From an uncultured virus (IMG/VR IMGVR_UViG_3300023094_000010) (taxonomy: Duplodnaviria; Heunggongvirae; Uroviricota; Caudoviricetes), in the IMG/VR virus record IMGVR_UViG_3300023094_000010: a stretch of DNA of 20,000 nt; one strand, 5' to 3'. Both the position numbers and the translations under genes were made by a program. Under the pieces are notes generated by a model. That model worked only from the letters and a program-made list of their open reading frames with translations, was not told where the DNA came from and did not search any database. Below are positions 393 through 16,071 of the stretch, piece after piece; the stretch's first letter is position 1, and each line of letters starts with the position of its first letter.

Positions 393-591
393 AGCCACCC
401 TCGCAGCCGCCAACCTCGTTACAACTTCCGGTCCTCTCAATTATGTCCACGCTCTCGAAAATCCCTCCTTCAAAATCTCCTACGACGCCGAAACGCTCGC
501 AGCTGCGGCGCTCCGCGTCGCCGAGCAACGGGGATACGAGCGTGGTCGCGCCGACGCCCGGCGAGATCTCATCGACCGGCTTTTCTCTTAG
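385..591 (+). CDS. Small hypothetical protein overlapping the 5' part of the sigma ORF
   Basis: 68 aa, TTG start overlapping the upstream stop region. Genome-typical codons (gcc, ctc, atc, tcc). Confidence 0.6.
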   Translation: MNKATLAAANLVTTSGPLNYVHALENPSFKISYDAETLAAAALRVAEQRGYERGRADARRDLIDRLFS

Positions 592-1393
592 TCGCATCGC
601 CCGTTTGGCCGGCGAGTTCAAGCCGCTGTCGGGGTCCGAGGAGCGAAAGCTCTTGGCCTCGAGAAAAACGAAGGACGAGAAACGCCTCGCCCTCTGGCAC
701 CACAATCTGCGGTACGCCGGCCTCCTCACGACCGAGGCTTTCAATCGCCGCCTGCCTCACCAAATCTGCACCCGCGACGACCTCGAGTCCGCCGCGTTCG
801 TCGCGCTGTGGGACGCCGCCGGCAATTTCGAACCTCAACGGGGCACGAAGTTCATCTCGTACGCCAAATGGGGCATCAACAAGGCCCTCTCCGACGTCCT
901 CACGCACTCCGCGAGCGGCCTGACGGTGCCTCGTGCGGCTATCCGCATCTTGGGAGCCCTCAAAACGCAGGAAGACACCGGCGTCGAAAGCAAACAGTTT
1001 TCTCAGCGTCGACTGCAGAAGGCCGCCCTCTATCGAACTGCGGTGACCTCTATCGATTATACACATCTCAAAGGGGATTCCGCCGACGTCATCGAGGGCC
1101 GTCACGCTCTTATCCCCGGCGACATCGACACTGTCAAGGAGGTCGAGACGCCCGAGCTGTCCGCCAAGCTCGACGAGATGCTGGAGAAGCTGGCCGGATT
1201 AGATCCCCGCATGCCCCAGATGCTGCGTGATTATTACGACTTCGACGGCCGCCACCACACCCTCGACACCATCGGGAAAAAACACGGCATCACCCGCGAA
1301 CGCGTCCGCCAAATCCTTTTCCAAGGGCTCCGCCGTCTCCGCATCCTCGCGCAGGCGCGGGGCATCAAATTCCAAGACCTCCTCGCCTCGTGA
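443..1393 (+). CDS. Sigma-70 family RNA polymerase sigma factor (start uncertain)
   Basis: Region 1.2-like PLSGSEERKLL; region 2 DDLESAAFVALWDAAGNFEPQRGTKFISYAKWGI; region 4.2 TLDTIGKKHGITRERVRQI. Confidence 0.92.
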   Translation: MSTLSKIPPSKSPTTPKRSQLRRSASPSNGDTSVVAPTPGEISSTGFSLSRIARLAGEFKPLSGSEERKLLASRKTKDEKRLALWHHNLRYAGLLTTEAFNRRLPHQICTRDDLESAAFVALWDAAGNFEPQRGTKFISYAKWGINKALSDVLTHSASGLTVPRAAIRILGALKTQEDTGVESKQFSQRRLQKAALYRTAVTSIDYTHLKGDSADVIEGRHALIPGDIDTVKEVETPELSAKLDEMLEKLAGLDPRMPQMLRDYYDFDGRHHTLDTIGKKHGITRERVRQILFQGLRRLRILAQARGIKFQDLLAS

Positions 1394-1995
1394 TCATCAT
1401 CTCCGACGTCCACGGCTGCTACAACACGTTCCGCCGCCTTCTGCGCAAATGTCCCGACGAGCCCCTTGTTCTTGGCGGTGACAACATCGACCGCGGGCCT
1501 CGGTCGGCTGAAATGGTCCGCTGGATCATGGACACTCAGACCCCTTCGGTGAAGGGTAACCACGAAGACCTGATGCTCGGCGAACTCGGCATCGTCGATC
1601 ACTACGACGAAGGACTGTGGGTCATGAACGGCGGCGGGGATGCAATAAAATCGTGGAACGGACTTCCTCCGAACGACGTCCGGAAATGGGCATTCGAGCT
1701 GCCGTATTATCTGAAGTTCGACAACCTCCTCATCTCTCACACCGGACACGGATTGGCCGGCGATAAACCGCACGGGCACCTGTCGGCGCTCTGGCACCGC
1801 GACCCTCAATTTCCGGACGACGGCCTGTTCCGCGTCTTCGGTCACACTCCCGCCAAGGAGCCCGTCATCACATCTTCCTACGCCATGATCGACACCGGCT
1901 GTGCGTATCAGAATCGTGGATACGGAACTCTCACGGCCTTGCAATGGCCGTCGATGCAAATTTTTCAGCAACCCTACGACGAATCTCCTCTTTAA
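1390..1995 (+). CDS. Calcineurin-like metallophosphoesterase (Ser/Thr phosphatase, lambda NinI/PrpA-like)
   Basis: Motifs SDVHG, GDNIDRG, GNHE, SHTG, FGHTP, IDTG. GTGA overlap with the sigma stop codon. Confidence 0.92.
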   Translation: MIIISDVHGCYNTFRRLLRKCPDEPLVLGGDNIDRGPRSAEMVRWIMDTQTPSVKGNHEDLMLGELGIVDHYDEGLWVMNGGGDAIKSWNGLPPNDVRKWAFELPYYLKFDNLLISHTGHGLAGDKPHGHLSALWHRDPQFPDDGLFRVFGHTPAKEPVITSSYAMIDTGCAYQNRGYGTLTALQWPSMQIFQQPYDESPL

Positions 1996-2000
1996 ATCTC

Positions 2001-3265
2001 ATGGTCGACTTTGCAAAACTTCTCGATAAAAACTGTGCCTCCGACAAGGCCCCGATCGTGTTCACCCCCGATCAGCAGGAGGCCTACGACGCCGTCTGCT
2101 CTGGAAAAAATGTCTGCATCACCGGCCCCGCCGGGACGGGAAAATCCGTGCTGTTGAATTGCCTTCGCGAGGCTTTCAAAGGCGGCCTCGACGTCACCGC
2201 TTCCACCGGCATTGCCGCGCTCAACGTGAGCGGCATCACGATCCACTCGTGGGCCGGCCTTGGACTCGGCGAGGACCCGATCAACTACATCGTCAGCCAA
2301 ATCCTGCAACGTCGCAAGGTCCTCTATCGCATACGAAATTGCCGACGCCTCGCCATCGACGAGGTGAGCATGCTCTCGGCTCCGCTGCTGACCAAGCTCT
2401 CCGAGGTCTTGTCGGCCGAATGGGCTCGCGCCGAGATTGAAGTGCATGAGCTCACGACCATCGTTCGTCAAAAGGATGCCAATTTCGCCGCCCTCCTCAA
2501 CAAAATCCGCGTCGGCACCGTCGACCACGAAGTGGCTGCGCTGCTCCAGTCCCGGCTCGAGGCGGTCGACAATGACCTGACGATCAAGCCTGTCGTGCTG
2601 GAAGGCCGCAACGAAGACGTCGACCGCCTGAACCAAAAGGAGCTGGCCAAAATCGACGCCGAGGTTTGTCGCTCCGTCGCACAAGACACCGGCGAGCCCT
2701 CCTTTGTTGAACGCCTGAAAAAAGACTGCATCGCCCCGAGGTGCTCGATCTGAAAATCGGGGCTCAAGTGATGTGTCTCAAAAATCTCAATCCCGAGTAC
2801 GGCGTGGTCAACGGCAGCGTCGGTGTGCTCGTGTCGTTCGACGGAAAAACCGAGGACGGTGACAACCTGCCGCTGGTTCAATTTGGAGCCTCGAAGATTC
2901 TGTGGCCCATCGCGCCGGCGGTGTGGGAACTGAAAGACGGCCAGAACGTCATGGCTCGGCGCGAGCAATTCCCGCTGCGTCTTGCGTGGGCCATCACCAT
3001 CCACAAATCACAGGGCATGACGCTCGACAAGATGAGCGTGAATTTGCACGACATCTTCGAGGCCGGCCAGTCGTACGTGGCCTTGTCCCGCGCCCGCACG
3101 CTCGAAGGCGTTTTCCTCACTGCAGTGGACGCGGGGCGCATCCGCGCTCATCCGGACGCCGTCGCTTTCTACGCCAAGAACAAACGTATCCAAAATTCGG
3201 ATACCGCCGAAGCCGACCGTTGCCCCTTCGAGGATCACGGCGTTGACGAACCTGAAATAAATTAA
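2001..3265 (+). pseudogene. Pif1/RecD-like SF1B helicase, frameshifted and lacking motif III
   Basis: Walker A GPAGTGKS, ASTGIAA, TIHSWAG, DEVSML, IVRQ in 2001..2753. LKIGAQVM, VNGSVG, QFPLRLAWAITIHKSQGMTL, YVALSRAR in 2741..3265. Frame changes at CCCC 2734-2737. No GDxxQLPP motif. Confidence 0.85.
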
Positions 3266-3303
3266 AAATAGTTGTTGACGGCGGGAGCGCGGTCTGTTTT
3301 TCT
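3264..3303 (+). promoter_or_regulatory. Class 1 promoter: A-tract, TTGACG-17-TTTTCT
   Basis: TTGACG 3275-3280 and TTTTCT 3298-3303. The 16-mer AAAAATAGTTGTTGAC is identical to 15128-15143. Confidence 0.75.
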
Positions 3304-3324
3304 CGGATCAACCTAGTAATACAA

Positions 3325-3669
3325 ATGATCTCCCTGACCACTCCCGCCTTCATCTCTTTCCTCGCCGGTGCCGAGAAAATCACCGTCGACCACATCACTG
3401 CCAACTACCCGCGCAATGCGGCTCTCATCGAGCTCAAACTCGTAGCGACCGAGGGCAAGAAAAACATCCACGTCGTCCGCACCGAGCGTTGCCGCAAGGA
3501 CAACAAAATCATCACCAGTTCCAGCCACTGCCTGATCGATCGCGCCACCGGCGACGTGTTGAAGCCCGCTGGCTACGGCCGCCCCGCCAAGGGCACTCGT
3601 GGCAACATCAACGACCAGCACAACGGCCTCGGCCGCATGGGCGAGTACGGCCCCCACTACAATCGCTAA
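3325..3669 (+). CDS. Conserved phage hypothetical protein
   Basis: GKKNIHVV...HCLIDRATGDVLKPAGYGRPAKGTRGNI resembles a widespread small phage family (FVDKxTGDVxKPAxWxxPAKxxR). Confidence 0.8.
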   Translation: MISLTTPAFISFLAGAEKITVDHITANYPRNAALIELKLVATEGKKNIHVVRTERCRKDNKIITSSSHCLIDRATGDVLKPAGYGRPAKGTRGNINDQHNGLGRMGEYGPHYNR

Positions 3670-3688
3670 AACTTTTTCCTCCCAACAC

Positions 3689-4963
3689 ATGAAATCCATC
3701 CCGTCTCATCTCCCTCCGTTGCCTGTGGGCACCGTTTTTCTCGGCCTCGGCGGCTCGTTCAAACTTCTGCCGGGCAGCGCCTACTTCAAATCGTACACGT
3801 TCTACAAGAACGACCATCAATGGAGCGGTCTGGAAAGTAATGCGGGTGACGGTAGCCGCACCTACTACGCCGCCCCGGCCGACTCCGAGATCGTGCGCCT
3901 GAACGCCCCGAAGTCTGTCGACCTGAGCTCCTGCGTCGTTGGTCAGAAGCTCCGCTGCCGCGACGGTTCCTTCTACACCTTCGAGGGTTCGTGTGTCCGT
4001 GGTGGGCACATCTGCCGCATCGCCCTGATCGATAATCCAAAACACTACCGAAGCGTCTACACCTCCACCGGCCGAGGCAACGAAGTGGGCGGCATCGATT
4101 GCGACTGCGACGTCCTCGAAATCCTGCCCCTCGAACAGCAGGCCTCCCCCGCGCCCGAGATCGCCAAACCCCCGGCCGCTCCGCGTTCGCCGCGGGAGCT
4201 TTACTTGGAGGGAGCCAAGCTGGCCGACTTCAAGGCCGGCGAGTGGGTCAAGGTGCTCTTCGCAGTGCCGACCGAGGCTGGCTGGCCCGGAACGTGGGTT
4301 GAGGACATGAACGCGTTCGTCGGCGAGACGCACGAGGTCGTCACTCCTGCCGTGACCGCGCCCGACGCTCGTTATCCGTCCGGCAACGTCGGGATCAAAA
4401 ACAAAAAAGGTGTCCGCTGGTTTTTCCCGTGGTTCTGTCTCCAACGCGCCGAGTCCCCCAAGCCGCCGACTCCGAAAAAGCCGGAGCCGGTCAGCATCAA
4501 GCTGGACGATAGTTTCACGGCTGTCATCGACAACGCTCTCACCGTCAAGGTCGGCTGCCAGACCTTCGAGGTCCAGAAGCTGAAAGAGCTCGAAACCTCA
4601 ATGGGGCCGGCGTCTCGCACGCTTGCTCTGAACAGCTCGTACGTCGCGCAATTCACCGCCCCAGCGGTCGACCACTGCGTCGTCAACGGCACCAAGATCG
4701 CGGCTGACACGCTCCGCCAGATCATCAAGGCCGCCGAGGTGTTCGCTGCCCCGGCTGCGCAAGCAACCGAGCTCGCCGCCAAGGTCCGTCGCTTCACCCA
4801 CGCCCAAATCAAATGGGACTACCACATGGAATTCAAACCCGACGGTACCGTTACCATGATCAAGGACGACAAAGACAAAAAACGCACCGTCATGACCCAT
4901 TTTTACAAGATCTACGAGGCCGAACGCATGGTTGCGCAGGGCATCTGGAAAGAGATCCCGTAA
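3689..4963 (+). CDS. Multidomain hypothetical protein with Pro-rich linkers
   Basis: ATG 3689 follows a pyrimidine/AC-rich spacer. Long ORF with typical codon bias; several small modules separated by PAPEIAKPP and PKPPTPKKP linkers. Confidence 0.85.
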   Translation: MKSIPSHLPPLPVGTVFLGLGGSFKLLPGSAYFKSYTFYKNDHQWSGLESNAGDGSRTYYAAPADSEIVRLNAPKSVDLSSCVVGQKLRCRDGSFYTFEGSCVRGGHICRIALIDNPKHYRSVYTSTGRGNEVGGIDCDCDVLEILPLEQQASPAPEIAKPPAAPRSPRELYLEGAKLADFKAGEWVKVLFAVPTEAGWPGTWVEDMNAFVGETHEVVTPAVTAPDARYPSGNVGIKNKKGVRWFFPWFCLQRAESPKPPTPKKPEPVSIKLDDSFTAVIDNALTVKVGCQTFEVQKLKELETSMGPASRTLALNSSYVAQFTAPAVDHCVVNGTKIAADTLRQIIKAAEVFAAPAAQATELAAKVRRFTHAQIKWDYHMEFKPDGTVTMIKDDKDKKRTVMTHFYKIYEAERMVAQGIWKEIP

Positions 4964-4974
4964 ACCACAACAAC

Positions 4975-5007
4975 GGCGGGCGACCTCCGAGGTCGCCCGC
5001 CTTAATT
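4975..5007 (+). terminator. Stem-loop, probable intrinsic terminator
   Basis: Perfect 12-bp stem GGCGGGCGACCT/AGGTCGCCCGCC, 3-nt loop, followed by TTAATT (weak U tract). Confidence 0.65.
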
Positions 5008-5024
5008 AACACTCGTAAAATTCA

Positions 5025-5366
5025 ATGAACGCCAAACAACGAAAAGCACACTCCGCCAAGCTCAGCCGGGCTTGGTATCGCACCCCAAAGGGTCAGGCCT
5101 ATCAACGGACGCTCCGTGAGCGCCTGTTTTCTCCCGAGTGGAAGCTCCTCCCCGGCCCGCGTAAATGGACCTTCCGCGACGACGTCGCCGTGCTGAGCAG
5201 GACGAAGTCCGACCGCGAGCTCGCGCAAGCCTTCGGGCTCACGATGCCGGCGGTTCGTCAGCGCCGCAATCGCCTCAATAAACTCCTCTGGACGGCCGGC
5301 CAGCATTCGCTGGTTGCGAGCGGCCAAATCTCTTACTCCCTCCGCCTGCAGAAGGCCCTCTCCTAA
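5025..5366 (+). CDS. Putative HTH DNA-binding protein
   Basis: Basic protein; WTFRDD...SDRELAQAFGLTMPAVRQRRNRL fits an HTH/Myb-like pattern. Confidence 0.65.
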   Translation: MNAKQRKAHSAKLSRAWYRTPKGQAYQRTLRERLFSPEWKLLPGPRKWTFRDDVAVLSRTKSDRELAQAFGLTMPAVRQRRNRLNKLLWTAGQHSLVASGQISYSLRLQKALS

Positions 5367-5635
5367 TGTCCTACAGCTACAAAACCGAACGCCCGTTCAT
5401 TTTCACCGAGGAAGGACAGGTCCAATTCTTGGCCGTCCGGGATCGTGTCCAGCACCTGATCAAAACCGCGGGGGCTTTCCGCATGGATCGCGCCATCGAA
5501 AAGCAATCCGGCGACTCGTGGCACCTACTCGCCTGCGTCGACCGTCTCGTGGAGCTGAAAGAAATCCACGAACTCACCCCTCCAAACTCGTGCGCGGGTC
5601 AGCACCGCGTCTTCACCAACTTCGACCGCCTGTGA
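5366..5635 (+). CDS. Phage hypothetical protein
   Basis: 89 aa, TAATG coupling to the upstream gene, typical codon bias. Confidence 0.8.
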   Translation: MSYSYKTERPFIFTEEGQVQFLAVRDRVQHLIKTAGAFRMDRAIEKQSGDSWHLLACVDRLVELKEIHELTPPNSCAGQHRVFTNFDRL

Positions 5636-6186
5636 AACACTCCATCGAAATCCTCCCGTGCGGGAGCTACTGCCTCGCCCGTCCCGATCACACGCCGTAT
5701 TCACTCGGTGAATACCAACTCCTCCTGAAGTGCGTCGACCCCGAGGCCGAACGCCTCCTCGACAACATACTCGACTCCACCGATCACGAAGGCGACGCCG
5801 ACAAAAAAAACGTCGACACCTTCGAGGCCTACAAGCAGGCAAGGGCGCTGCTGCCCGAGACACTCAAAGAGCTTGAATTGCTCCGCGATAAAAACTTGGA
5901 GCTGCATGCTAAAATCGCCGGCCTCAACATCGGCCGACTTGATTTGGAAAAACTACGCGCCGAAGAAGCAGACGGCCTAAACGCCGAGATCGAATCCCTC
6001 CGCGCCACGGTCGCGTCGCAGGATAAAAAGATCACTTCGCTGATTCAAACCGGGCGACCCCTCAGGACTGGATATGAAAAGTTGCTGTCCCTCTCTTCGG
6101 TGCAGCCGGGAGCGCCAAACCCATCCATCACCGCCTACGACGAAGCTGTTCAATCATGCACACGCCGCCCCCTCTCACCCTCATAG
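5632..6186 (+). CDS. Coiled-coil hypothetical protein
   Basis: GTGA-coupled start at 5632 in the 5314..6186 frame; heptad-like L/E/K-rich central part. Confidence 0.75.
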   Translation: MKHSIEILPCGSYCLARPDHTPYSLGEYQLLLKCVDPEAERLLDNILDSTDHEGDADKKNVDTFEAYKQARALLPETLKELELLRDKNLELHAKIAGLNIGRLDLEKLRAEEADGLNAEIESLRATVASQDKKITSLIQTGRPLRTGYEKLLSLSSVQPGAPNPSITAYDEAVQSCTRRPLSPS

Positions 6187-6455
6187 ACGGCCCCGACTGC
6201 TACCATCTCGCAGGGTGGGAGGACCGAAAACACTGGGCACGCTTCAACGACGCCCTGTGGTCCCACATCTTTTCGCAAGGCTTCCATCACGGTATCCAAG
6301 AAATCGATACATTGAAGATTTTGGCTGACGCTCAGGCGGCCGAGATTGTGCGCCTGCGTGCGGCGCTTAAAGACGCAGAACTCACGCGTCCCTTCCAAAT
6401 TACGGTGCCCGCAGATTTTAGTTTAAAAACGCTTGACGGGGCCAAGCCTCTCTGA
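6156..6455 (+). CDS. Hypothetical protein
   Basis: 99 aa ORF filling the gap, contains a phage-typical AEIVRLRAAL helix. Confidence 0.65.
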   Translation: MHTPPPLTLIDGPDCYHLAGWEDRKHWARFNDALWSHIFSQGFHHGIQEIDTLKILADAQAAEIVRLRAALKDAELTRPFQITVPADFSLKTLDGAKPL

Positions 6456-6461
6456 ATTACT
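6425..6461 (+). promoter_or_regulatory. Class 1 promoter: TTGACG-17-ATTACT, leaderless ATG at 6469
   Basis: A-tract 6425-6429, TTGACG 6433-6438, ATTACT 6456-6461, ATG 7 nt later. Confidence 0.6.
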
Positions 6462-6468
6462 TCATGCC

Positions 6469-6642
6469 ATGACCTCTTTCTCTAAACTTTCCTCCACTGC
6501 CCAAGACCTGATCATCGATGCTCTCATGGGAAAATTCGACGAGAGCGGACCTCCTGAAATGTCCCCGGAAGTGCGAGCAGAGCTCGAAGCTTGGAGCATC
6601 ACCGACGGCACCCACGACGCTTTTACCCACTCCCATGATTGA
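6469..6642 (+). CDS. Small acidic hypothetical protein
   Basis: MTSFSKLSSTAQDLIIDALMG...; ATG placed at the predicted transcription start. Confidence 0.6.
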   Translation: MTSFSKLSSTAQDLIIDALMGKFDESGPPEMSPEVRAELEAWSITDGTHDAFTHSHD

Positions 6643-6730
6643 CCTTCTCCTCTGCATCCTCTTCACCCCCGTCGTTCTGGCCTATCAGGCTTGGATCGAC
6701 CGGGGCGGCGAAAACAACGAACACGACTAA
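6635..6730 (+). CDS. 31-aa single-TM membrane peptide
   Basis: MIDLLLCILFTPVVLAYQAWIDRGGENNEHD; overlaps the upstream stop. Confidence 0.55.
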   Translation: MIDLLLCILFTPVVLAYQAWIDRGGENNEHD

Positions 6731-6734
6731 AGCC

Positions 6735-6812
6735 GTGTGGTTTTTCCTTCTCGTCGTCTTCATCCTCTGGTGCCTGATGGAAGAGCCTCCATCCGACCCC
6801 AACCCGTCCTGA
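6735..6812 (+). CDS. 25-aa single-TM membrane peptide
   Basis: GTG start, MWFFLLVVFILWCLMEEPPSDPNPS; fills the gap between neighbours; C-ending codons. Confidence 0.5.
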   Translation: MWFFLLVVFILWCLMEEPPSDPNPS

Positions 6813-6814
6813 CC

Positions 6815-7192
6815 ATGGCCGACTTCAACACCACATCCACGCACAAAGCCCGTGTCGCCCGCACGTGCTACGAGACCGGCGAGATTATTGCCGCCGGGGA
6901 CCGTTACACCCGCTTCGCCGGCACCCACGAGGGCGACTTCTACTGCATCTGCATGAAGACGGAGGTCGCTGAGATTTTTAATCGCCTCAACTCCGAGTCG
7001 TGGAAAACCAACAAGGAAGGAATTGTCTTCGGGGGTCTGATCGATTACATCTACGACAGCCTGAACGAATCCTCCACGCCGCAACAAATGGCCGACGCCA
7101 AAGCCATTCACATGCTGTCGGGCCGCAAGCACGCTTGGATGTTCGAGCGCATCGCCGACGTCGAGGCAGTATCCAATTTACCAGTACAATGA
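6815..7192 (+). CDS. Phage hypothetical protein, degenerate Zn-ribbon-like N-terminus
   Basis: KARVARTCYETGEIIAAGDRY...GDF resembles the phage ARKxHxCxECxxxIxxGxxY family. Confidence 0.7.
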   Translation: MADFNTTSTHKARVARTCYETGEIIAAGDRYTRFAGTHEGDFYCICMKTEVAEIFNRLNSESWKTNKEGIVFGGLIDYIYDSLNESSTPQQMADAKAIHMLSGRKHAWMFERIADVEAVSNLPVQ

Positions 7193-7467
7193 GAAAGAAA
7201 AAGAAACTGCGGAAATCTCTGCCCAAAACGGGCCGTTTTTATTCTTTGTGGGAGCGTCAGACTCGACGACACAAATGGAGGAACACCCATTGTTTTGTGT
7301 GGGTCACTAATTGCGTCCCGGCAACCCGGGACGACCCTAAACACCTGCACGCCGAAATTTCCTACCAGACTTCGAACAGTGGAGGACCGTCTCGCACGGG
7401 CTGGGCTGTTTGCTACCTCTCTGACTACCGCCAATTGCGCACCCCGATCTTCGATTCGCCGCTCTAA
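7189..7467 (+). CDS. Basic hypothetical protein
   Basis: ATGA-coupled start, MRKKKKLRK...; fills the gap. Confidence 0.6.
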   Translation: MRKKKKLRKSLPKTGRFYSLWERQTRRHKWRNTHCFVWVTNCVPATRDDPKHLHAEISYQTSNSGGPSRTGWAVCYLSDYRQLRTPIFDSPL

Positions 7468-7493
7468 TTTTCGCTAGCCAATCCAAAAAACAC

Positions 7494-8210: not shown

Positions 8211-8214
8211 TCCA

Positions 8215-8508
8215 ATGACCACTCGTACCAAGAAAAAACTGCTCGTCGCCGCGGCGGCGCTCTTCATTGAAGTTGCACCTCGGGGATCGCTAACACCCAC
8301 GGTCACGTGGCAGGCCCTCAGTCGCGCTGTCAGCAATGCTTATCCCCAACGGGGTCCTTCGGATCGTTATCAGATGGCATACGATCTACTCCGGGATTTC
8401 CGCAGCATGTTCACAACAGACCCCGCGTTCGGCGTACCTCAATGGCCGTACGGAGACCGCGAAACGCGTTGTCTCGCCCTTCTTTTTCTCGCACACTCCC
8501 TCGAATAA
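8215..8508 (+). CDS. Hypothetical protein, probable paralog of 10604..10918
   Basis: N-terminal KKLLVAAA; C-terminal W...ETRCLALLFLAHSLE. Confidence 0.7.
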   Translation: MTTRTKKKLLVAAAALFIEVAPRGSLTPTVTWQALSRAVSNAYPQRGPSDRYQMAYDLLRDFRSMFTTDPAFGVPQWPYGDRETRCLALLFLAHSLE

Positions 8509-8519
8509 ATTTTCCTCCT

Positions 8520-9623: not shown

Positions 9624-9624
9624 C

Positions 9625-9957
9625 ATGAGCAGCATCGAAGTCACCCAAACCATCAAGCTGACCATCCGTGGCGTCCCCGTGGAGCTCAGCAAGGACGAGG
9701 CCACCGAACTGCGCGACGCCCTCGCTGCACTGCTCGGCGACCCGAAGCAGGACGACCGTTACGAAGCGATCCGCAAGAAGATCGACCAGATACGAGACAA
9801 GAGCGTCGATCGCATCCCGTTCCCGATCATCCCGACGACGCCCCCGCGCACCCTCCCGTGGCCACCGCCTCGAGACGACTCCGGCAAATGGCCCTACCAG
9901 TACCGGGAAATCTGGTGCAGCGCCGACGCCAACCTACGGATGGCGATTGGTCCATAA
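9625..9957 (+). CDS. Hypothetical protein
   Basis: 110 aa; IKLTIRGVPVELSKDEATELRDAL N-terminus and a Pro-rich tail. Confidence 0.8.
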   Translation: MSSIEVTQTIKLTIRGVPVELSKDEATELRDALAALLGDPKQDDRYEAIRKKIDQIRDKSVDRIPFPIIPTTPPRTLPWPPPRDDSGKWPYQYREIWCSADANLRMAIGP

Positions 9958-9961
9958 CCTC

Positions 9962-9992
9962 AAGGGCCGACCAATCTGGTCGGCCCTTTTTT
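9962..9992 (+). terminator. Rho-independent terminator
   Basis: Stem AAGGGCCGACCA/TGGTCGGCCCTT, 3-nt loop, T6 run at 9987-9992. Confidence 0.85.
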
Positions 9993-9998
9993 GTATCC

Positions 9999-10196
9999 AT
10001 GAAAAAACTACTCGCAATCCTCTGCCTCGCCACGGCCGGCTGCTCCACCACCCGTCAAGTCCACGACGTACCGAAGGGCGTTGTATCCGGAAGTGGATAC
10101 GACTACGAATTGTTCGAACGACCCGACGGCTCTCGGTATATCAGGAACGAAGCCGGCAAGGTGATGGACGTCGCCGAGTCCGGGACTTTAAAATAG
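9999..10196 (+). CDS. Small lipoprotein
   Basis: MKKLLAILCLATAG-C lipobox-like signal; 65 aa. Confidence 0.75.
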   Translation: MKKLLAILCLATAGCSTTRQVHDVPKGVVSGSGYDYELFERPDGSRYIRNEAGKVMDVAESGTLK

Positions 10197-10238
10197 TTGA
10201 AGAAAGTTGTTGACCGCCCTGCGCGAGTCGTTTCTTCT
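10190..10238 (+). promoter_or_regulatory. Class 1 promoter: TTGACC-17-TCTTCT, leaderless ATG at 10246
   Basis: AAAATAGTTG...AAAGTTGTTGACC with TTGACC 10210-10215, TCTTCT 10233-10238, ATG 7 nt later. Confidence 0.75.
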
Positions 10239-10245
10239 CGGTCCC

Positions 10246-10599
10246 ATGAGCCTTACCTCCATTCAAATCACAGCTGCCGTCGCATTCGATTCGGCCCTCG
10301 CCTCCGGGTACTCCGAGATCGAGGCCGTGCGTTACGTCTGGAAATTCCTGCGTCGTGCCGAGCTCAAGAATCTTCGCGCTCCCGACGCCTTCGAGCAACT
10401 GCACGTCAACACCGGATGCCGGAAATCCTACGTCAGCCCAATCGCTGCCGCCCTCGACCTCCCCTTTGCCGACGGCAACCGCGTCTTCGGCCACCACTCC
10501 TCCAAATACCCCCGCACCGGGCGAAGCTTTTCTGAGTCGATCTCGGCCCAAAACGACGTTCTCTCGTGGTTCCGCTCGCAGTCCAAACTAGCCGCCTAA
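10246..10599 (+). CDS. Hypothetical protein
   Basis: ATG 10246 in the 10207..10599 frame; typical codon bias. Confidence 0.75.
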   Translation: MSLTSIQITAAVAFDSALASGYSEIEAVRYVWKFLRRAELKNLRAPDAFEQLHVNTGCRKSYVSPIAAALDLPFADGNRVFGHHSSKYPRTGRSFSESISAQNDVLSWFRSQSKLAA

Positions 10600-10603
10600 T
10601 TCT

Positions 10604-10918
10604 ATGACCTCCTCCATCCGCACCAAACTCCGCGCCATCCTCCTGCTCGCTGCCGAGCGCATCGACCACCGCCCCGTCGCGTTGGTCCAAGATCGGATTG
10701 ACCCCGTCCTCGGGGCCGGCAACAATTACATCGAGACCGCCTGCGATCAAGCCGCTCTCTACCTGCACCACGACTTCGCCGAGGCCCGTCCGCTGTTCCG
10801 CATGCTCGTCGAGCTGACCGGCGTCCAAGGAGCCGAGGACCCCGACTTTACCGAGGGTTGGACCCTCGAAGACCGCGTGCTTTTTCTGCTCCTCCTCCGC
10901 GAATCCCTCCGCACGTGA
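10604..10918 (+). CDS. Hypothetical protein, probable paralog of 8215..8508
   Basis: N-terminal KLRAILLLAAE; C-terminal WTLEDRVLFLLLLRESL. Confidence 0.75.
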   Translation: MTSSIRTKLRAILLLAAERIDHRPVALVQDRIDPVLGAGNNYIETACDQAALYLHHDFAEARPLFRMLVELTGVQGAEDPDFTEGWTLEDRVLFLLLLRESLRT

Positions 10919-11340
10919 GACCGATCAATCGCCAATCCGCCATCGTCACGAGCCCGGGCGTGCGCCACGTCCCGGAGCCGCCTACGACCCTTCACTGGAA
11001 TCACTGCCCGGCCATCACGACGACGCGACTCGTCGAGCACGACTTCACCGGCATGCGCTGCGGTTCGCTCTTCGTGAAGGGTGTCTACGCCGGCGACACT
11101 CAAGTCCGCTGGGTCGTGCGCTGCACCTGCGGCCGCTACGAACTCCGCACCTCGAAGGCCCTGAGATCCTCGGGCAATAAAGCATGCCAGAGCTGTTCCA
11201 AAAGCGGCTCGGTGGTGCCGCTGCCCCACGAAACCGATCGCTGGGCTCGTTTCAAGGCTCAGAGTCCTGACGGCTTCGCGCATCCGAGCGACAGAAAAAA
11301 GCACCTCATCCACACACCTTTCATCTCCCGACAAAAATGA
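10915..11340 (+). CDS. Zn-binding hypothetical protein
   Basis: DFTGMRCGSLFV...WVVRCTCG...CQSC resembles the DLTGxRFGRLTV...WxCxCxCG module of phage endonuclease-associated proteins; GTGA coupling. Confidence 0.7.
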   Translation: MRPINRQSAIVTSPGVRHVPEPPTTLHWNHCPAITTTRLVEHDFTGMRCGSLFVKGVYAGDTQVRWVVRCTCGRYELRTSKALRSSGNKACQSCSKSGSVVPLPHETDRWARFKAQSPDGFAHPSDRKKHLIHTPFISRQK

Positions 11341-11540
11341 AACTCACCCGCACCAGAATCCTCGGGCGCTACAAAAACCCTCAAACCGGCCGCCCCGTAA
11401 ATGTTCATAAAGGCACCCGCGTGGACCGCAGCACCGACCACCTGTTTTTCATCCGCAGCGGCCTGCGGATATTCATTAATGATGGCGAGTTCTATTCGAA
11501 GTGGACAAAGATCCATCGGGCTGGCGTATCCATCCTGTGA
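11337..11540 (+). CDS. Small basic hypothetical protein
   Basis: 67 aa, ATGA coupling. Confidence 0.65.
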   Translation: MKLTRTRILGRYKNPQTGRPVNVHKGTRVDRSTDHLFFIRSGLRIFINDGEFYSKWTKIHRAGVSIL

Positions 11541-11728
11541 ATACCCCTCGCGTACGCCACATCGCTGGCATGTCAATTCCTGATGACGGCGCTGTCAGCC
11601 CCCTGAAGGATGAATCGTTTCGAGCCTTGGCGGCACAGCGGGCTTCATCCTCTCCGGATGCGAGGCTGAAAGAATCTGAGAAAAAACCCTTGACCCCGTC
11701 GCACGATTTTCTTTTGCTCGGCTCATGA
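11537..11728 (+). CDS. Possible 63-aa ORF (or non-coding structured region)
   Basis: GTGA and ATGA overlaps at both ends, but atypical codon use and a promoter inside it. Confidence 0.3.
   Translation: MNTPRVRHIAGMSIPDDGAVSPLKDESFRALAAQRASSSPDARLKESEKKPLTPSHDFLLLGS
11681..11718 (+). promoter_or_regulatory. Class 1 promoter: TTGACC-17-TTTGCT, leaderless ATG at 11725
   Basis: A6 at 11681-11686, TTGACC 11690-11695, TTTGCT 11713-11718, ATG 6 nt later. Confidence 0.8.
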
Positions 11729-12015
11729 CCCCCCTCCCTGCAAACGCCGAGCGAAACGACTCCCTGTGGACCTCCCGCTGCCCAGCCAAGGCTGGAACTT
11801 TCCGATGGTCCAAAGACCGGAAATGGGAGTACGTCACCCGCGTGGTCACGCAGCAGGACGACGGCACACTCGTTTGCTGGTCCCATAAGCTCGAAAATTA
11901 CGTCCCGGTCGCTTGGGTCGAGGGTCGTTGGCTGATTGAGGACCTCGTCGCCCAGAACGCCCTGCCGGCCCCCAAAAACTCCTGTGTCGCCCGTCGCTCC
12001 ATCTTCCGCAAATGA
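11725..12015 (+). CDS. Trp-rich hypothetical protein
   Basis: 96 aa, starts at the predicted transcription start. Confidence 0.75.
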   Translation: MTPLPANAERNDSLWTSRCPAKAGTFRWSKDRKWEYVTRVVTQQDDGTLVCWSHKLENYVPVAWVEGRWLIEDLVAQNALPAPKNSCVARRSIFRK

Positions 12016-12440
12016 AACCTCACTTCGACCTCCACCCGCTCCGATCCATCGACTGGGAGACCCTCCATCTCTCGAACCGCATGGGAAAAACAGACGCTGC
12101 CCGTCGCATGCTCGCACTCCATCAACAGCCCGTGCGCCTCGGCCGGTGGCAGCGCCTCAAGGACTGGTTGTCCTCCAATGTAAAAGCCTGTAAGGGTTGG
12201 AGGCTCGGCCGCTGCTATGGCATGAGCCGCCGGCCGCTGGGCGATCGAGACCTTGGAACTGAAACAGATGGAGTATGCCCGCCGATGAAAACCACGTTAA
12301 TTTCAAAGCTCCATCTATCTGCGGCCACTGCAACGCTTGGACTGGCAATCATCCCGCCGATCGACTGGGTGATCACAGGTTCTTTCATCCTTATGGCCCT
12401 CTGTTCGTTCGTAAACTGGGACGCGACCCGACAATCGTGA
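12012..12440 (+). CDS. Hypothetical protein; the hydrophobic C-terminal part may be a separate product from ATG 12285
   Basis: ATGA coupling. The last 51 aa (MKTTLISK...) contain two hydrophobic segments; the middle has atypical composition. Confidence 0.5.
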   Translation: MKPHFDLHPLRSIDWETLHLSNRMGKTDAARRMLALHQQPVRLGRWQRLKDWLSSNVKACKGWRLGRCYGMSRRPLGDRDLGTETDGVCPPMKTTLISKLHLSAATATLGLAIIPPIDWVITGSFILMALCSFVNWDATRQS

Positions 12441-12772
12441 AACTCTACCGCTACCACCTCAACTGGGACCGCACGTCCCTGACCCGCGAAGAATTCGAGG
12501 TCGTGAAGACCACGCCCTGCGGTGTCTGGATCACCGATGATCGCTTCAAACCGCGTTTCATCAACCTCCAACGCCGCAAGCAATGGGCCAACAAGACGCC
12601 TGAGGAGGCGCTGGAGGCGTTCAAGGCCCGCAAGCGCCGGCAGATAAAGATCCTGTTTTCCCAGCTGCTGGAGGCCAAGAAAGCCCTCGCAGTGGCCGAG
12701 GGTACGAGCCTTGCCGTGTTGCAGCTCCCTGAATCGTCCTCCTTCGAAACGTGCTTTCCCAACCTTCCATGA
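12437..12772 (+). CDS. Conserved phage hypothetical protein
   Basis: MKLYRY...VVKTTPCGVWI...KQWANKTPEEALEAFKARKRRQIKIL, a pattern seen in many phage early proteins. Confidence 0.8.
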   Translation: MKLYRYHLNWDRTSLTREEFEVVKTTPCGVWITDDRFKPRFINLQRRKQWANKTPEEALEAFKARKRRQIKILFSQLLEAKKALAVAEGTSLAVLQLPESSSFETCFPNLP

Positions 12773-12960
12773 AACTCCGTCACCTCCAGATCGCCGCCCT
12801 ATCCTTTTACGTCGGAATGTCCATCTCAACCTTCGGGCATGCGTGGAACCGCAACGTCTACCCTGACCTCGAACCGCGCACCTACTCGGCGATCCTTTGC
12901 GCCGCTGCGTGGCCGCTCTACTGGTCCGCCGTGCTCAATGCTCCTGCAAAAACATCATGA
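12769..12960 (+). CDS. Small two-TM membrane protein
   Basis: Two hydrophobic segments, WPLYWS motif; ATGA coupling at both ends. Confidence 0.7.
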   Translation: MKLRHLQIAALSFYVGMSISTFGHAWNRNVYPDLEPRTYSAILCAAAWPLYWSAVLNAPAKTS

Positions 12961-13232
12961 AAGCGACCACCCCCACGCCGGCCGAAAGCCTTGAAAATAT
13001 CCGGAAGGCCCGACTCAAGATGATCAACCGGAGAATTCGAAAAGCGGCAGACCTCCTCGAGGAGGCTGCGTTCATTCTTCAGATTGATCACCCCGAAGGC
13101 GGCATCTTTATCGAAGGCGAGGGGTCTATCAACGCTCTGCAGCAACGGGATGACGAAAAAGGTACCCGAGAGCACGGCATCCTAGCAAGCGCCCGTTTCG
13201 AAAAATCCCTCATCTCTGTCGGCGCTTGGTGA
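12957..13232 (+). CDS. Hypothetical protein
   Basis: ATGA-coupled start, 91 aa ending in GAW. Confidence 0.7.
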   Translation: MKATTPTPAESLENIRKARLKMINRRIRKAADLLEEAAFILQIDHPEGGIFIEGEGSINALQQRDDEKGTREHGILASARFEKSLISVGAW

Positions 13233-13236
13233 TTCG

Positions 13237-13461
13237 ATGACCACGCTCCCTCCACTCCCCGAAGGCTGGACGTCTTGGAGGCCCGCAGGCTGGGGTGGAC
13301 TCAAACGTGCGCCCGACGGCACACCGTGGGCATTCACCATCCGCGGCTTTGACCTCGAGTATACCCTCGCCGGACCTCGCAACACCGAACCCTCGGCCGA
13401 TGAAAAGCTCGGCCCTCAGGGGTATCCAGATTTCTACTACCTCGAGGCCACCAACCGATGA
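13237..13461 (+). CDS. Hypothetical protein
   Basis: 74 aa, LPPLPEGW N-terminus. Confidence 0.7.
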   Translation: MTTLPPLPEGWTSWRPAGWGGLKRAPDGTPWAFTIRGFDLEYTLAGPRNTEPSADEKLGPQGYPDFYYLEATNR

Positions 13462-13625
13462 CACAAAAAGTCTTTAACTACTCGATCGTCGACGGTCCTC
13501 GCATAATCGAAGTCGACCATCTGCCCGAAATCAAAAACGAGTTCGTCTGGTTTGAGGGTGTGCAACGCGAAGTCCGGGAAGTGCATCACACCGCGACCGG
13601 CAAACAGATCGAATTGGTGGGATAA
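13458..13625 (+). CDS. 55-aa hypothetical protein (not in ORF track)
   Basis: ATGA-coupled: MTQKVFNYSIVDGPRIIEVDHLPEIKNEFVWFEGVQREVREVHHTATGKQIELVG. Confidence 0.65.
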   Translation: MTQKVFNYSIVDGPRIIEVDHLPEIKNEFVWFEGVQREVREVHHTATGKQIELVG

Positions 13626-13735
13626 CATTTCCGGTTCGCAGGCCATGAGGCCGACCAGAGGACGAGTCTGTTCTCGATCGTGGCCTGACCGGCTCCAAGC
13701 CTCTCATCCTCGAAAGGTGAGATGCTTTCTTGTAT

Positions 13736-14179
13736 TCAACCCTTGGATACTTCGGGCAGCTCGTACTCCAAGGCCGCGAACATGCCTATGTCGTGGGCGA
13801 TGTGCCGGCATCCAATGTTGTCGGACTTGACGAGCTCCGCGGCTTGGAGCCGGATGAAATCGCAGCGTTGCTCCTCCGTGAGGGCAAGAAAAGGCCCGTA
13901 GCCACTACCCGACGACGGCCACGCTTGCACGTATTCCCAGAGCGCGGCACGCCATGAGTCTGGCATCCATTGAAGCTCGCCGGGCTCCACGACTACGAGC
14001 GGGCGGGTCTGGAAGGAAATAAACCCCGGCGTAGTGCCGTGGGTGATACACGTGATCGTGCCGTTCTTTTCACTTCTCCAAATATTGCCGGGCACCGTCA
14101 TGGACGGCAGCCCCCATTCTCGGACCCCTATGCGTCCGATGAGTTGTTTGTCAATCGTGACAGGCTTTGAGTCTTCCAT
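13736..14179 (-). CDS. Hypothetical protein on the opposite strand
   Basis: 147 aa with ATG start and protein-like composition; divergent from the promoter at 14246. Confidence 0.6.
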   Translation of the reverse strand: MEDSKPVTIDKQLIGRIGVREWGLPSMTVPGNIWRSEKNGTITCITHGTTPGFISFQTRPLVVVEPGELQWMPDSWRAALWEYVQAWPSSGSGYGPFLALTEEQRCDFIRLQAAELVKSDNIGCRHIAHDIGMFAALEYELPEVSKG

Positions 14180-14235
14180 TTCTTGAAGGGTAACAGACTG
14201 TGCGGGTTGGAGACATCCGGGCTTGAAGAAAAATG

Positions 14236-14274
14236 AAAATAGGCATTGACGCGAGCTGTGCGGTCATTTTTGCT
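14236..14274 (+). promoter_or_regulatory. Class 1 promoter: TTGACG-17-TTTGCT, leaderless ATG at 14282
   Basis: AAAATAG upstream, TTGACG 14246-14251, TTTGCT 14269-14274, ATG 7 nt later. Confidence 0.8.
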
Positions 14275-14281
14275 CTGCTCC

Positions 14282-14518
14282 ATGAACCAACCATTTGATT
14301 TCCAGCCCCGCCCTGCGCATCCCTTCAGCCGTGCCCAAGTCATCTCGATCATCCTGCGAAACGTACGCCGGCAAAAGCCCGCAACCCGCGCTCTTTGGGC
14401 CAACAGCAAGAATGACAGCGAGAGCCGCACCCAAGCCAAGCGCATCCTTATCAGGCAGTGGGTCGAGGAGGCCTCCACCAATCCCGCCATCATCGCCCAC
14501 TACAAGCAGGTTGCATAA
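14282..14518 (+). CDS. Hypothetical protein
   Basis: 78 aa from ATG 14282. Confidence 0.7.
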   Translation: MNQPFDFQPRPAHPFSRAQVISIILRNVRRQKPATRALWANSKNDSESRTQAKRILIRQWVEEASTNPAIIAHYKQVA

Positions 14519-14529
14519 CTCCCCCCGTC

Positions 14530-14811
14530 ATGAACGCCCGCCGCTACGAGCTCGTCAAATACTTCTCCGACGCCCGCAGTCCTGAGATCCAGCCCCGCTT
14601 GCGCCTGCTCACCCTCGAGGAGGCCCAGAGCGCCTGCAACGCGCCATCCACACGCAAGGCTGGCGAGTGGTTCATCGGGTACCGCGAGGCCAATCGCCGC
14701 GAGTCCTTGGCGGAGACCCGGCGCGGCACCGCATCCATCACCAAAGCCCTGCTGGCCTGCCATCACGGGCTGGGCGGTGGCCGTGCCAAGTTTGGAACCT
14801 ACGACTTCTGA
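14530..14811 (+). CDS. Conserved phage hypothetical protein
   Basis: YELVKYF...LTLEEAQSACNAPST...WFIGY resembles the GLTLEEAQAHCxDPxT...WFDGY phage family. Confidence 0.75.
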   Translation: MNARRYELVKYFSDARSPEIQPRLRLLTLEEAQSACNAPSTRKAGEWFIGYREANRRESLAETRRGTASITKALLACHHGLGGGRAKFGTYDF

Positions 14812-14814
14812 GTT

Positions 14815-15135
14815 ATGAACAAACGCACCATCAACGCCCGCATCAAGCGTCTCGGAGTCGAGATCCAGAACAAGCGCGGCGACGGCTACTCCTATTTCAC
14901 CTCCCTGACCACTGGCGACCAAATCGGTGAGTCGGTGCCCGTCTGCTACCTCAATCACCTCACGGTCGAGAAGTGGGAAGAGGCGGCCATCTGCGCCTGC
15001 CACGACTACCGCACCGATTGTGGGCGTCGTGATGTGTCACCTTCTGCACTTCCCCCGAAGACTTCGACCCTTAAATTGTCTGGCAACTTGAAGACTATCA
15101 GGCTGATAGACGGAGAGTGCGAAACTGAAAAATAG
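14815..15135 (+). CDS. Hypothetical protein
   Basis: 106 aa; RGDGYSYF...ESVPVCYLNHLTVEKW. Confidence 0.75.
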   Translation: MNKRTINARIKRLGVEIQNKRGDGYSYFTSLTTGDQIGESVPVCYLNHLTVEKWEEAAICACHDYRTDCGRRDVSPSALPPKTSTLKLSGNLKTIRLIDGECETEK

Positions 15136-15167
15136 TTGTTGACTGCGGCGAGGTTTTTCTTTTTGCT
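15128..15167 (+). promoter_or_regulatory. Class 1 promoter: TTGACT-17-TTTGCT, leaderless ATG at 15175
   Basis: AAAAATAGTTGTTGAC 15128-15143, TTTGCT 15162-15167, ATG 7 nt later. Confidence 0.8.
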
Positions 15168-15174
15168 CTGACTC

Positions 15175-15603
15175 ATGAACCGCACCAAATTCAAAAAGGG
15201 CGACGAACTTTACATCGTATCCATCAGCCACGGTCAGAGCGGTGGCTGGGACCACACCTCGGAAGCTTTCCGCACCCGCGTCGGTGCCGAGCTCGTGGTT
15301 CTCACCAGCCTCGGGAAAAAGCAAGGTACCGCGCTGACCAAGGGTGCCAATCTCGAGCGCCGCATCTACACCGGCTCCACCGTGCTGGTCGCGACCAAAG
15401 AAGAGGTCGAGGCGATCCGGGCCTCGATCGGTACGGAGCAGGCGGAAAAAACGATTCAGGCCGCCCACGTCAACGCTCTCGAATGGAAACGCAACTACGC
15501 CGACACCGGCCGCGGCACCGCCCTCGGCATCCAGCGCAACGAGCTGTCCTTGCAGACCATCGCCGCCTGCGTCCCGCTGGAGCATGTGATCATCTGGCGC
15601 TAA
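15175..15603 (+). CDS. Hypothetical protein
   Basis: 142 aa, FKKGDELY SH3-like start; converges with the - strand gene. Confidence 0.8.
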   Translation: MNRTKFKKGDELYIVSISHGQSGGWDHTSEAFRTRVGAELVVLTSLGKKQGTALTKGANLERRIYTGSTVLVATKEEVEAIRASIGTEQAEKTIQAAHVNALEWKRNYADTGRGTALGIQRNELSLQTIAACVPLEHVIIWR

Positions 15604-16037
15604 CCCGGTCCGCCGCCGGCCAGCACCCCTTGCTCCACGAGCCTGAGGGTGCTGAGACGTTGCAAGATCTTTGCGCGTTGCATTTTGGAGGCCTCCAAAC
15701 GTTGGGCGGCCTGCTCCAGCACTCCAATGCGGCGGTCGACACGGGCCAGCAAAGCCTGCAGCTTGGCTTTCTCGGCCTGTGGAGGAGCCGCTGGGGCCAA
15801 GCGTACGCCGATCAGCCACTCGGGATGACTCAGGGCCTGACAGAGCAGATCCTCGAGCTGTCGTGCCTGCTGGGCGACGGTCAACGACCGATCGACCTTG
15901 AGGGCCACCGCGTCGAAGGCGTTCCCAAGCTCCAAGATTGCTGATGTGGTGTCGGCCTGAGCTTTTGCAGCTCCGTTGCTGTAAGCAAGGATCAGGACGT
16001 CGCGTCGATGCTTCCTCGAGTAGTTGGGTTGTTTCAT
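15600..16037 (-). CDS. Helical/coiled-coil hypothetical protein
   Basis: 145 aa, A/L/Q/R-rich; stop overlaps the stop of 15175..15603; has its own promoter. Confidence 0.7.
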   Translation of the reverse strand: MKQPNYSRKHRRDVLILAYSNGAAKAQADTTSAILELGNAFDAVALKVDRSLTVAQQARQLEDLLCQALSHPEWLIGVRLAPAAPPQAEKAKLQALLARVDRRIGVLEQAAQRLEASKMQRAKILQRLSTLRLVEQGVLAGGGPG

Positions 16038-16042
16038 GCTCT

Positions 16043-16071
16043 ACCAAGTTGAAGGATTGATGAGTTGTCAA
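16043..16071 (-). promoter_or_regulatory. Class 1-like promoter: TTGACA-17-CTTGGT, ATG 5 nt later
   Basis: On the - strand, TTGACA 16071-16066, CTTGGT 16048-16043, ATG 16037. Confidence 0.55.

Follow-up and report, generated by a model that had tools for sequence, protein, structure and literature searches.

Leaderless promoters of the sigma-70 type are known from Actinobacteria and Deinococcus, in which a TTGACA -35 box, a 17-nt spacer and a TANNNT -10 box are followed by the start codon after 6 to 7 nt. The near-invariant adenine at -11 (-11A), which is the second position of the -10 hexamer, flips into a pocket of sigma in the textbook first step of promoter opening, and W433/W434 and Q437/T440 of sigma have roles in this process. 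Strong near-consensus early promoters of the host type are familiar from the phages T4, T5 and T7 (A1-A3), and near-consensus promoters with tracts resembling upstream promoter (UP) elements before many small open reading frames (ORFs) typify phage early regions. The sigma-A promoters of Bacteroidota carry TTTG at -33 and TAnnTTTG at -7. Some phages supply a sigma factor, such as phiEco32 gp36, which reads its own promoters, and SPO1 gp28, which reads a T-rich -10, a property that our literature search did not confirm. Phage sigma factors with promoters of their own include those of SPO1 (gp28, middle; gp34, late), phiEco32 (gp36) and Salmonella phage 7-11 (see PMC13401047, PMC12276001, PMC4331800). 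Here we examine a 20,000-nt stretch of DNA from an uncultured phage (IMG/VR record IMGVR_UViG_3300023094_000010; hereafter the window), which carries seven TTGAC-type sites without -11A, termed class A, and a gene for a sigma-70-family protein. Our preferred reading, to which we assign a probability of about 55%, is that class A is the consensus form of a promoter grammar that a family of Verrucomicrobiota uses for its own genes, and that the host holoenzyme would probably suffice to read it.

The original prediction described seven sites in which TTGACN is followed after exactly 17 nt by a hexamer lacking adenine at its second position, mostly with an upstream A-tract, and every part of this description holds. 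The sites start at positions 3275, 6433, 10210, 11690, 14246 and 15139 on the + strand and at 16071 on the - strand, and A-rich tracts precede all six on the + strand. The bipartite sigma-70-type layout is evident in the -35 box and the spacer, with TTGAC in 7/7 and 17 nt in 7/7. The -10 boxes have T at -7 in 7/7 and -11A in none, with T at -11 in six sites and C in one. C at -8 is constant in six.

The site at 3255..3303 (TTGACG, TTTTCT) lies 21 nt ahead of the ATG of a DUF7717 gene (3325) and so is not leaderless. A variant form at 6415..6471 (TTGACG, ATTACT preceded by TGa) places its hexamer 7 nt before the ATG at 6469. The same 7-nt gap is found at 10190..10248 (TTGACC, TCTTCT, ATG 10246), at 14226..14284 (TTGACG, TTTGCT, ATG 14282) and at 15119..15177 (TTGACT, TTTGCT, ATG 15175), and the gap is 6 nt at 11670..11727 (TTGACC, TTTGCT, ATG 11725). 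The minus-strand relative at 16035..16071 (TTGACA, CTTGGT) is weak and stands 5 nt before the ATG (16037) of the sole gene on the minus strand (16037..15600, 145 aa), whose codon-position GC values of 0.71/0.45/0.71 are gene-like. Conservation extends beyond the hexamer as CTC(G/T)GnTC(C)ATGA, and a T-tract occupies -17..-13.

The pattern TTGAC-N18-NNTN[CG]T occurs seven times compared with 0.95 +/- 1.0 in 300 dinucleotide shuffles (maximum 4), and the form ending in NNTNCT occurs six times compared with 0.49 +/- 0.69 (maximum 3). When the ATG is included, six occurrences stand against 0.083 expected (300 shuffles, maximum 1). A canonical sigma-70 scan of the window is not enriched (9 versus 6.2 +/- 2.8). 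Site quality is uneven, with a tight family of five, a variant and a weak relative. In a leave-one-out position weight matrix (PWM) analysis, the sites at 3275, 10210, 11690, 14246 and 15139 score 43.7, 26.0, 33.1, 27.2 and 37.6 bits, within a range of 26-44 bits that ranks just under the training sites. The site at 6433 is marginal at -0.5 bits and is outscored by five non-training positions, and 16071(-) is not recovered at -23 bits.

Class A resembles known leaderless promoters in its -35 box, 17-nt spacer, distance from hexamer to ATG and -7T, but it differs from the TANNNT form by having T (once C) at -11, a UP-like A-tract and a conserved stretch between hexamer and ATG. Like the early promoters of lytic phages such as T4, T5 and T7, the class A sites are numerous, closely spaced, uniform and apparently strong, carry A-tracts, precede small genes of unknown function and match the grammar of the presumed host. 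Unlike those promoters, they match an unusual grammar without -11A, and their predicted transcripts are leaderless. With the sigma-A promoters of Bacteroidota they share a lineage-specific departure from TATAAT, a T-rich -10 region and the absence of a Shine-Dalgarno (SD) sequence. However, the Bacteroidota box keeps TA, and its -35 element and spacing differ.

We compared patterns of equal information that differ solely at the second hexamer position, in the layout TTGAC-N18-hexamer-N5-7-ATG, and used each pattern read backwards as its control. In five Gemmatimonadota genomes, TANNNT occurs 40 times (control 4) and TTNNNT five times (control 2). The corresponding counts are 19 (1) and 7 (1) in Verrucomicrobia genome G406, 27 (5) and 9 (6) in Verrucomicrobia genome G407, and 20 (4) and 1 (1) in Latescibacterota genome G410. 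Two Hymenobacter genomes, G408 and G409, have 0 and 0 TANNNT sites (controls 3 and 4) and 1 and 0 TTNNNT sites (controls 3 and 5). The leaderless TANNNT layout is therefore found here in Gemmatimonadota, Latescibacterota and Verrucomicrobia, and leaderless TTGAC promoters are common outside Bacteroidota, normally with -11A. Among 151 Gemmatimonadota genomes, the class A form NTTNCT has 46 matches versus 37 in the control. Gemmatimonadota, to which the best sigma matches had pointed, are thus rejected as the host because they use TANNNT and are not enriched in class A, and Bacteroidota are rejected because the two Hymenobacter genomes lack TTGAC-type leaderless promoters.

Among 81 mixed Verrucomicrobiota genomes, TTTNCT occurs 26 times versus 18 in the control, so that here, as in the 151 Gemmatimonadota genomes, the class A grammar is minor or absent. 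Three of the matches fall in a single genome, G443. This genome has no TANNNT sites and five TTNNNT sites. The G443 family, as defined here, comprises 11 genomes (G443 and G491-G500; 35.6 Mb), in which TTNNNT occurs 81 times versus 9 in the control, or about 69 times once repeat copies in G495, G499 and G500 are discounted by eye. TANNNT is not enriched (18 versus 11), and T[C/G]NNNT occurs 96 times versus 25, with about 20 of the 22 matches in G491 belonging to one repeat family. These counts yield a preference at -11 of T > C/G > A. The most common hexamers in the family are TTGGCT, TTTGCT, TTTTCT, TTTCCT, TTGTCT and TCTTCT, which conform to TnnnCT, and the phage hexamers TTTGCT, TTTTCT and TCTTCT are all present among the family matches. 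Thus, the class A grammar is also that of cellular promoters in this lineage.

The 35 loci that we inspected, from six genomes of the family, yielded 37 site rows. Two of the loci (L173 and L174) overlap, which brings the number of distinct sites to 35. Frames of at least 60 aa are opened in 28 of the 37 rows (26 distinct sites), and the other nine open frames of 55 aa or fewer, including five that range from three codons or fewer up to 19. By eye rather than by a family scan, the N-termini of the long frames read as AccA (three genomes), a low-molecular-weight phosphatase (four genomes), ThrRS, IspH, a ProA-like enzyme and others. Between orthologous sites the spacer sequence drifts, whereas TTGAC is retained and so is the hexamer (TTTGCT, TTAGCT, TTGCTT). 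For example, the accA site is TTGACA-17-TTTGCT in G443 and G498 and has TTAGCT in G494. Adenine is rare at -10, -9 and -8 of the family sites (3, 2 and 5 of 37). A check that does not use the hexamer, made on 400 kb each of three family genomes, shows that the distance from TTGAC to ATG peaks at 35-36 nt. The counts at 35 and 36 nt are 13 and 5 in G495, 4 and 8 in G498, and 10 and 10 in G493, compared with 0-6 at other offsets and up to 11 in G493.

This enrichment bears directly on the proposal, made in the original prediction, that the phage sigma might read TTGAC-17-TTTGCT as a private regulon. The proposal is unsupported because the same geometry with an A-less hexamer precedes cellular genes such as accA, thrS and ispH in the 11 genomes of this presumed host family, where the -11A version is not enriched. 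What survives of that interpretation is the sigma-70-type geometry, the A-less -11 position and the altered sigma residues that act at -12/-11. The alternative raised at the time, a host lineage whose housekeeping sigma accepts a non-canonical -10, fits better in that the A-less grammar is enriched in the family, but region 2 of RpoD is canonical there.

The phage probably infects a bacterium that belongs to the G443 family or is closely related to it. This assignment rests on promoter grammar, and one 31-nt terminator match adds support. The intrinsic terminator at 9962..9992 on the + strand has a 12-bp stem and a T-run, and it closes the unit ahead of the promoter at 10210. It agrees with a terminator of family genome G492 (locus L131, 1497-1535) at 29 of 31 positions and is identical to it throughout the 19-nt core of the stem-loop, with E 1.7e-4 in that genome among 151 genomes searched.

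On this reading, class A combines a UP-like A-tract, a consensus TTGAC -35, a 17-nt spacer and an nTTnCT -10 without -11A. The host-family form may be written TTGAC-N17-T(T>C/G>A)nn(C/T)T-N5-7-ATG and appears to serve many of the family's own leaderless genes. Because the same grammar stands before those genes, the host RNA polymerase holoenzyme would most likely need no phage sigma to read class A, and the sites might act as early or middle promoters of the phage. Transcription starting on the A of the ATG would then yield leaderless mRNAs for blocks of small phage genes.

Several observations weigh against this reading. The family patterns fixed T at -12 and -7, and repeat copies inflate the counts. 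The -10 logo in the 3 x 400 kb sample is weak, with T at -7, C/T at -8 and no preference for A at -11. In 400 kb of G495, 6 of 11 tRNA genes have a TTGAC-type -35 box followed by A-containing boxes (AATCCT, GATCAT), and an A-less -10 hexamer is found at 0/11. The A-less promoters would therefore form a class of the host's own, distinct from its stable-RNA type. The original prediction had named occurrence before host rRNA and tRNA genes, together with transcription by the host holoenzyme alone, as the mark of a host property, and the outcome is mixed, with the motif located before cellular genes of the family but not before these tRNA genes. Region 2.3-2.4 of RpoD in G443 and G493 is letter-for-letter canonical, and the second short sigma of the family (…KLSTYAAWWIKQSIKRAL) is practically identical in the TANNNT-preferring genomes G406 and G407, so neither host sigma examined explains the A-less -10. 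Class A in the phage is far more uniform than the host grammar in its T-tract at -17..-13 and its CTC(G/T)G after the hexamer, which could reflect a dedicated reader, and the phage encodes a sigma altered at exactly the residues that face -12/-11. The terminator core does not recur elsewhere in the 11-genome family, where it has one exact match, and it is rejected as a recurrent family element. Searches for host evidence of an independent kind gave no match to a clustered regularly interspaced short palindromic repeats (CRISPR) spacer or a prophage. The sequencing runs listed as containing the stretch are two of DNA and none of RNA, and the start sites are predictions.

The original prediction did not mention the leaderless layout. 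At six of the seven class A sites, 5-7 nt separate the hexamer from the start ATG of the following gene, the 21-nt gap at 3275 being the exception. Because of this short distance, the predicted +1 would be the A of the ATG, and the class A sites probably serve as promoters for leaderless mRNAs, although both their firing and these 5' ends are inferred. No SD or GGAGG-like box precedes any of the 41 gene starts inspected in the window. Their upstream regions are rich in C, T and A, with frequent CCTCC. A cruder ORF-based count finds an SD-like word at 5/38 starts versus 6/38 in a control window further upstream. Passages of one survey (PMC10783764) include Bacteroidota and some Verrucomicrobia among groups in which SD sequences are scarce, and a table from the same source gives a low figure (22) for Gemmatimonadetes. 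For Verrucomicrobia, our literature search turned up no study of promoters or of leaderless transcription.

Three further candidate promoters on the + strand, termed class B, have a canonical -10 and the same leaderless layout, with 6-8 nt between hexamer and ATG. They are located at 16562..16598 (TTGTGT, 16 nt, TATACT, 6 nt, ATG 16596), at 17659..17699 (TTGTGC, 18 nt, TATACT, 8 nt, ATG 17697 of an HNH endonuclease gene) and, in a class B-like form, at 18495..18531 (TTGTCG, 16 nt, TATAAA, 6 nt, ATG 18529). The pattern TTGTnn-N16-18-TATAnn-N6-8-ATG occurs three times versus 0.027 in shuffles, although it was defined after the sites had been seen. Class B is limited to the AT-richer right part of the window, which holds two HNH endonuclease genes.

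The sigma gene (443..1393, + strand) encodes 316 aa, arranged as sigma2, a short sigma3-like helix pair, a disordered linker and sigma4, with YAKWGINKALSD in region 2.3/2.4 and TRERVRQ in region 4.2. The protein belongs to the sigma-70 family by PF04542 (region 2; 26.8 bits, cut-off 24) and PF04545 (region 4; 48.5 bits, cut-off 24.1), and it matches PHROG 351. Among NCBIfam models, only the superfamily model TIGR02937 passes (51 bits, cut-off 42.9), and no equivalog is reached. The RpoD and RpoS equivalogs score 44-58 bits against cut-offs of 354-572, and thus the protein does not qualify as a primary (group 1) sigma. Neither PF00140 (region 1.2) nor PF04539 (region 3) matches the phage protein, whereas its nearest cellular relatives have both. 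The closest of these relatives, at about 33% identity, are short primary sigmas of Gemmatimonadota, followed by those of Bacteroidota, and all have YAVWWIRQ.

Alignment to solved sigma-70 and sigma-S chains places residues 113-304 on E. coli 403-603 and is gapless across region 2 (FEPQRGTKFISYAKWGINKALSD). The substitutions W434G, R436N, Q437K and R441D named in the original prediction are all present, as is the retained TRERVRQ, and T440S can be added to them. An AlphaFold model has a mean predicted local distance difference test (pLDDT) score of 74 with a confident sigma2 at residues 49-156, and the top 50 Foldseek matches are all sigma chains, the best being sigma-S and sigma-A.

In a protein collection clustered at 90%, the phage sigma is a singleton. 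An exhaustive search of 1.84 billion representatives found seven relatives, P0121-P0127 (E 3e-77 to 1e-20), of which P0121 is 51% identical and the others are 29-36% identical. W434 is missing in all eight clade members, which have G, T, A, H, E, P, V and H in its place. Positions 436/437 hold K/R in most of them, and an insertion of five residues ahead of region 2.2 is common to all. Their region 4.2 helices vary (TRERVRQ, TRQRVEQ, SRQAINA, SKQRIEQ and others), with TRERVRQ confined to the phage sigma (P0001) and P0122 and helices of the SRQAIN type in P0123 and P0125-P0127, and this variation would predict different -35 boxes across the clade. The members sit on contigs of 7-70 kb (Logan, ENA, JGI, NCBI). 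Another protein, P0271, was grouped with P0121-P0127 as a relative of the phage sigma and is absent from the phage collection. Metagenome scans with the phage sigma gave no matches. Scans with P0122 gave 13 loci, of which seven were translated and are ordinary WW-type sigmas, and the other six are short partial matches. A clade profile run on 401 Gemmatimonadota genomes returned two borderline matches (E about 4e-36), which we take as cellular sigmas, and the same profile returned 0 matches in 251 genomes of the order to which G443 belongs.

This phage resembles SPO1 and phiEco32 in that it encodes a divergent member of the sigma-70 family and has a separate class of promoters beside canonical ones. 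The phage sigma might accordingly be the main reader of class A, alone or beside a host factor, which we regard as possible but on balance doubtful. Such a protein would keep region 4.2 for TTGAC, consistent with its intact TRERVRQ, and would use a rebuilt region 2.3/2.4 (no W434, N436, K437, D441) to open a T-rich -10 without -11A. It could switch RNA polymerase to the middle genes of the phage while host RpoD serves the canonical class B. The placement of its substitutions at the residues that read -12/-11, the existence of a small clade united by loss of W434 and a shared insertion, and the presence in one phage of two promoter classes that differ in the -10 all agree with this role. The uniformity of class A past the hexamer and the failure of either host sigma examined to account for the A-less -10 point the same way. 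However, non-primary sigmas commonly lack the W dyad, and the phage sigma gene immediately precedes the class A units within one strand block, with its own promoter outside the window. Unlike the promoters of SPO1 and phiEco32, class A has a canonical -35, and its odd -10 is also found in cellular genomes without a phage sigma, which leaves the link between the phage sigma and these promoters tentative. Because the grammar is present where the clade was not found (in G443, with 0 matches in 251 genomes of its order), the phage sigma is not needed to read it.

A factor outside our view, such as a second phage sigma, a sigma-modifying protein encoded beyond the window, or a host alternative sigma of the short RpoD-like or extracytoplasmic function (ECF) type, appears improbable as the reader. 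There is room for one, since the analysed phage DNA is 20 kb of a 71,146-base contig. The host family has the second, RpoD-like short sigma together with several small sigma-70 proteins, which are the other sigma-70 matches in G443 and G493, and it displays two -10 styles, with A at tRNA genes and without A at leaderless genes. Against this, region 2.3-2.4 of the short sigma is no different in TANNNT-preferring Verrucomicrobia, and to our knowledge ECF promoters do not use TTGAC at -35. The window offers no pointer beyond a weak helix-turn-helix match at 5025..5366, which is under the cut-off. We consider it very unlikely indeed that the sites are not promoters at all, being instead either hairpins with T-runs that resemble terminators or non-functional intergenic cassettes that were copied recently. 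A T-run does come after a GC-rich spacer, and a small GAC...GTC hairpin can be drawn in 4/6 sites. However, folding energies are no better than those of shuffles (z -0.39 to +0.60), which rules out the terminator reading, and a terminator scan left the class A sites unlisted. Moreover, the spacers vary while the -35, the -10 and the ATG distance stay fixed, and the same layout precedes conserved cellular genes. A sigma-54 reading, with TTGC as the -12 box, was rejected by eye because GG is lacking at the needed distance and the start position is wrong. A displaced A-containing -10 inside the spacer was likewise rejected by eye because it would give spacers of 6-13 nt.

A broader proposal is more tentative than our preferred reading of class A, and we place it somewhat short of an even bet. 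The Verrucomicrobiota family and its phage may run many sigma-70-type promoters in which -11A is replaced by T (T > C/G > A), and which are otherwise canonical, with a region 2 of RpoD that is identical in every letter to that of E. coli. Opening of such promoters would need an undescribed mechanism, which might involve a helper factor, a different reader or nucleation at C-8/T-7. The W434-less clade of the phage sigma could be specialised in reading them. If the proposal is true, a natural A-less class that is otherwise canonical, shared by a phage and a bacterial family, would offer a clean system for the study of alternative DNA opening. Promoter grammar alone would offer a host prediction for an orphan soil phage, and promoter finders based on the consensus would miss most promoters in such lineages. 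A phage-borne sigma beside an odd motif is insufficient to call a private regulon.

Other features of these Verrucomicrobia and of the window deserve mention. Verrucomicrobia loci L059, L076, L105 and L136 show that these bacteria have, in addition to a long canonical RpoD, a second sigma that is short and RpoD-like (KLSTY..WWIKQSIKRAL), in which positions 436 and 440 are K. Genome G491 carries about 20 repeat copies that start with TTGACTT.GAGGGTG.GTGGTGTTGGGGTGG, end at an ATG and lie mostly at contig ends. The repeat probably represents an insertion sequence whose transposase promoter is leaderless.

The window has a GC content of 59% and corresponds to positions 43,725-63,724 of the 71,146-base contig, which derives from a leaf-litter DNA run that is probably the source of the record. 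The phage is also present in a second DNA run, where its coverage is low and reveals no informative variants. No near DNA match was found among 50,697 phage records, and no similar phage emerged from IMG/VR when the sigma, P0121 and the proteins of 454 aa and 438 aa served as queries. A helicase scan of IMG/VR gave a 19-residue motif match and nothing more, a protein atlas yielded no usable lead for the 454-aa protein, and tRNA and Rfam scans of the window gave no matches.

Genes on the + strand run from 57 to 15603 and are followed by the single minus-strand gene, a 560-bp AT-rich non-coding gap and further + strand genes. The recognisable products are the sigma-70-family protein, a NinI-like phosphatase, a Dda/Pif1-like helicase, the DUF7717 protein and HNH endonucleases, and most others are orphans. 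The helicase occupies two frames (1944..2753 and 2741..3265) with a 13-nt overlap, which could be explained by a frameshift, a programmed shift or a true split. A 65-aa ORF (9999-10196) encodes a lipoprotein-type signal (MKKLLAILCLATAGC...). It begins a few bases past the T-run of the terminator at 9962-9992 and stops just short of the promoter at 10210, and neither promoter class stands in front of it.

The non-coding stretch (16040-16600) separates the divergent minus-strand gene from the rightward genes, and 16001-17000 is the lowest-GC kilobase of the window at 48%. Two inverted repeats, one of 14 nt (16255-16268 / 16328-16341) with TCTTTTCC after it and one that is perfect over 12 nt (16086-16097 / 16283-16294), occur in this stretch together with AT-rich direct repeats. 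The stretch might serve as an origin or a packaging site, or it might encode a small RNA. The GC skew over 1-16000 is about -0.03 to -0.21, and thus C exceeds G on the coding strand throughout.

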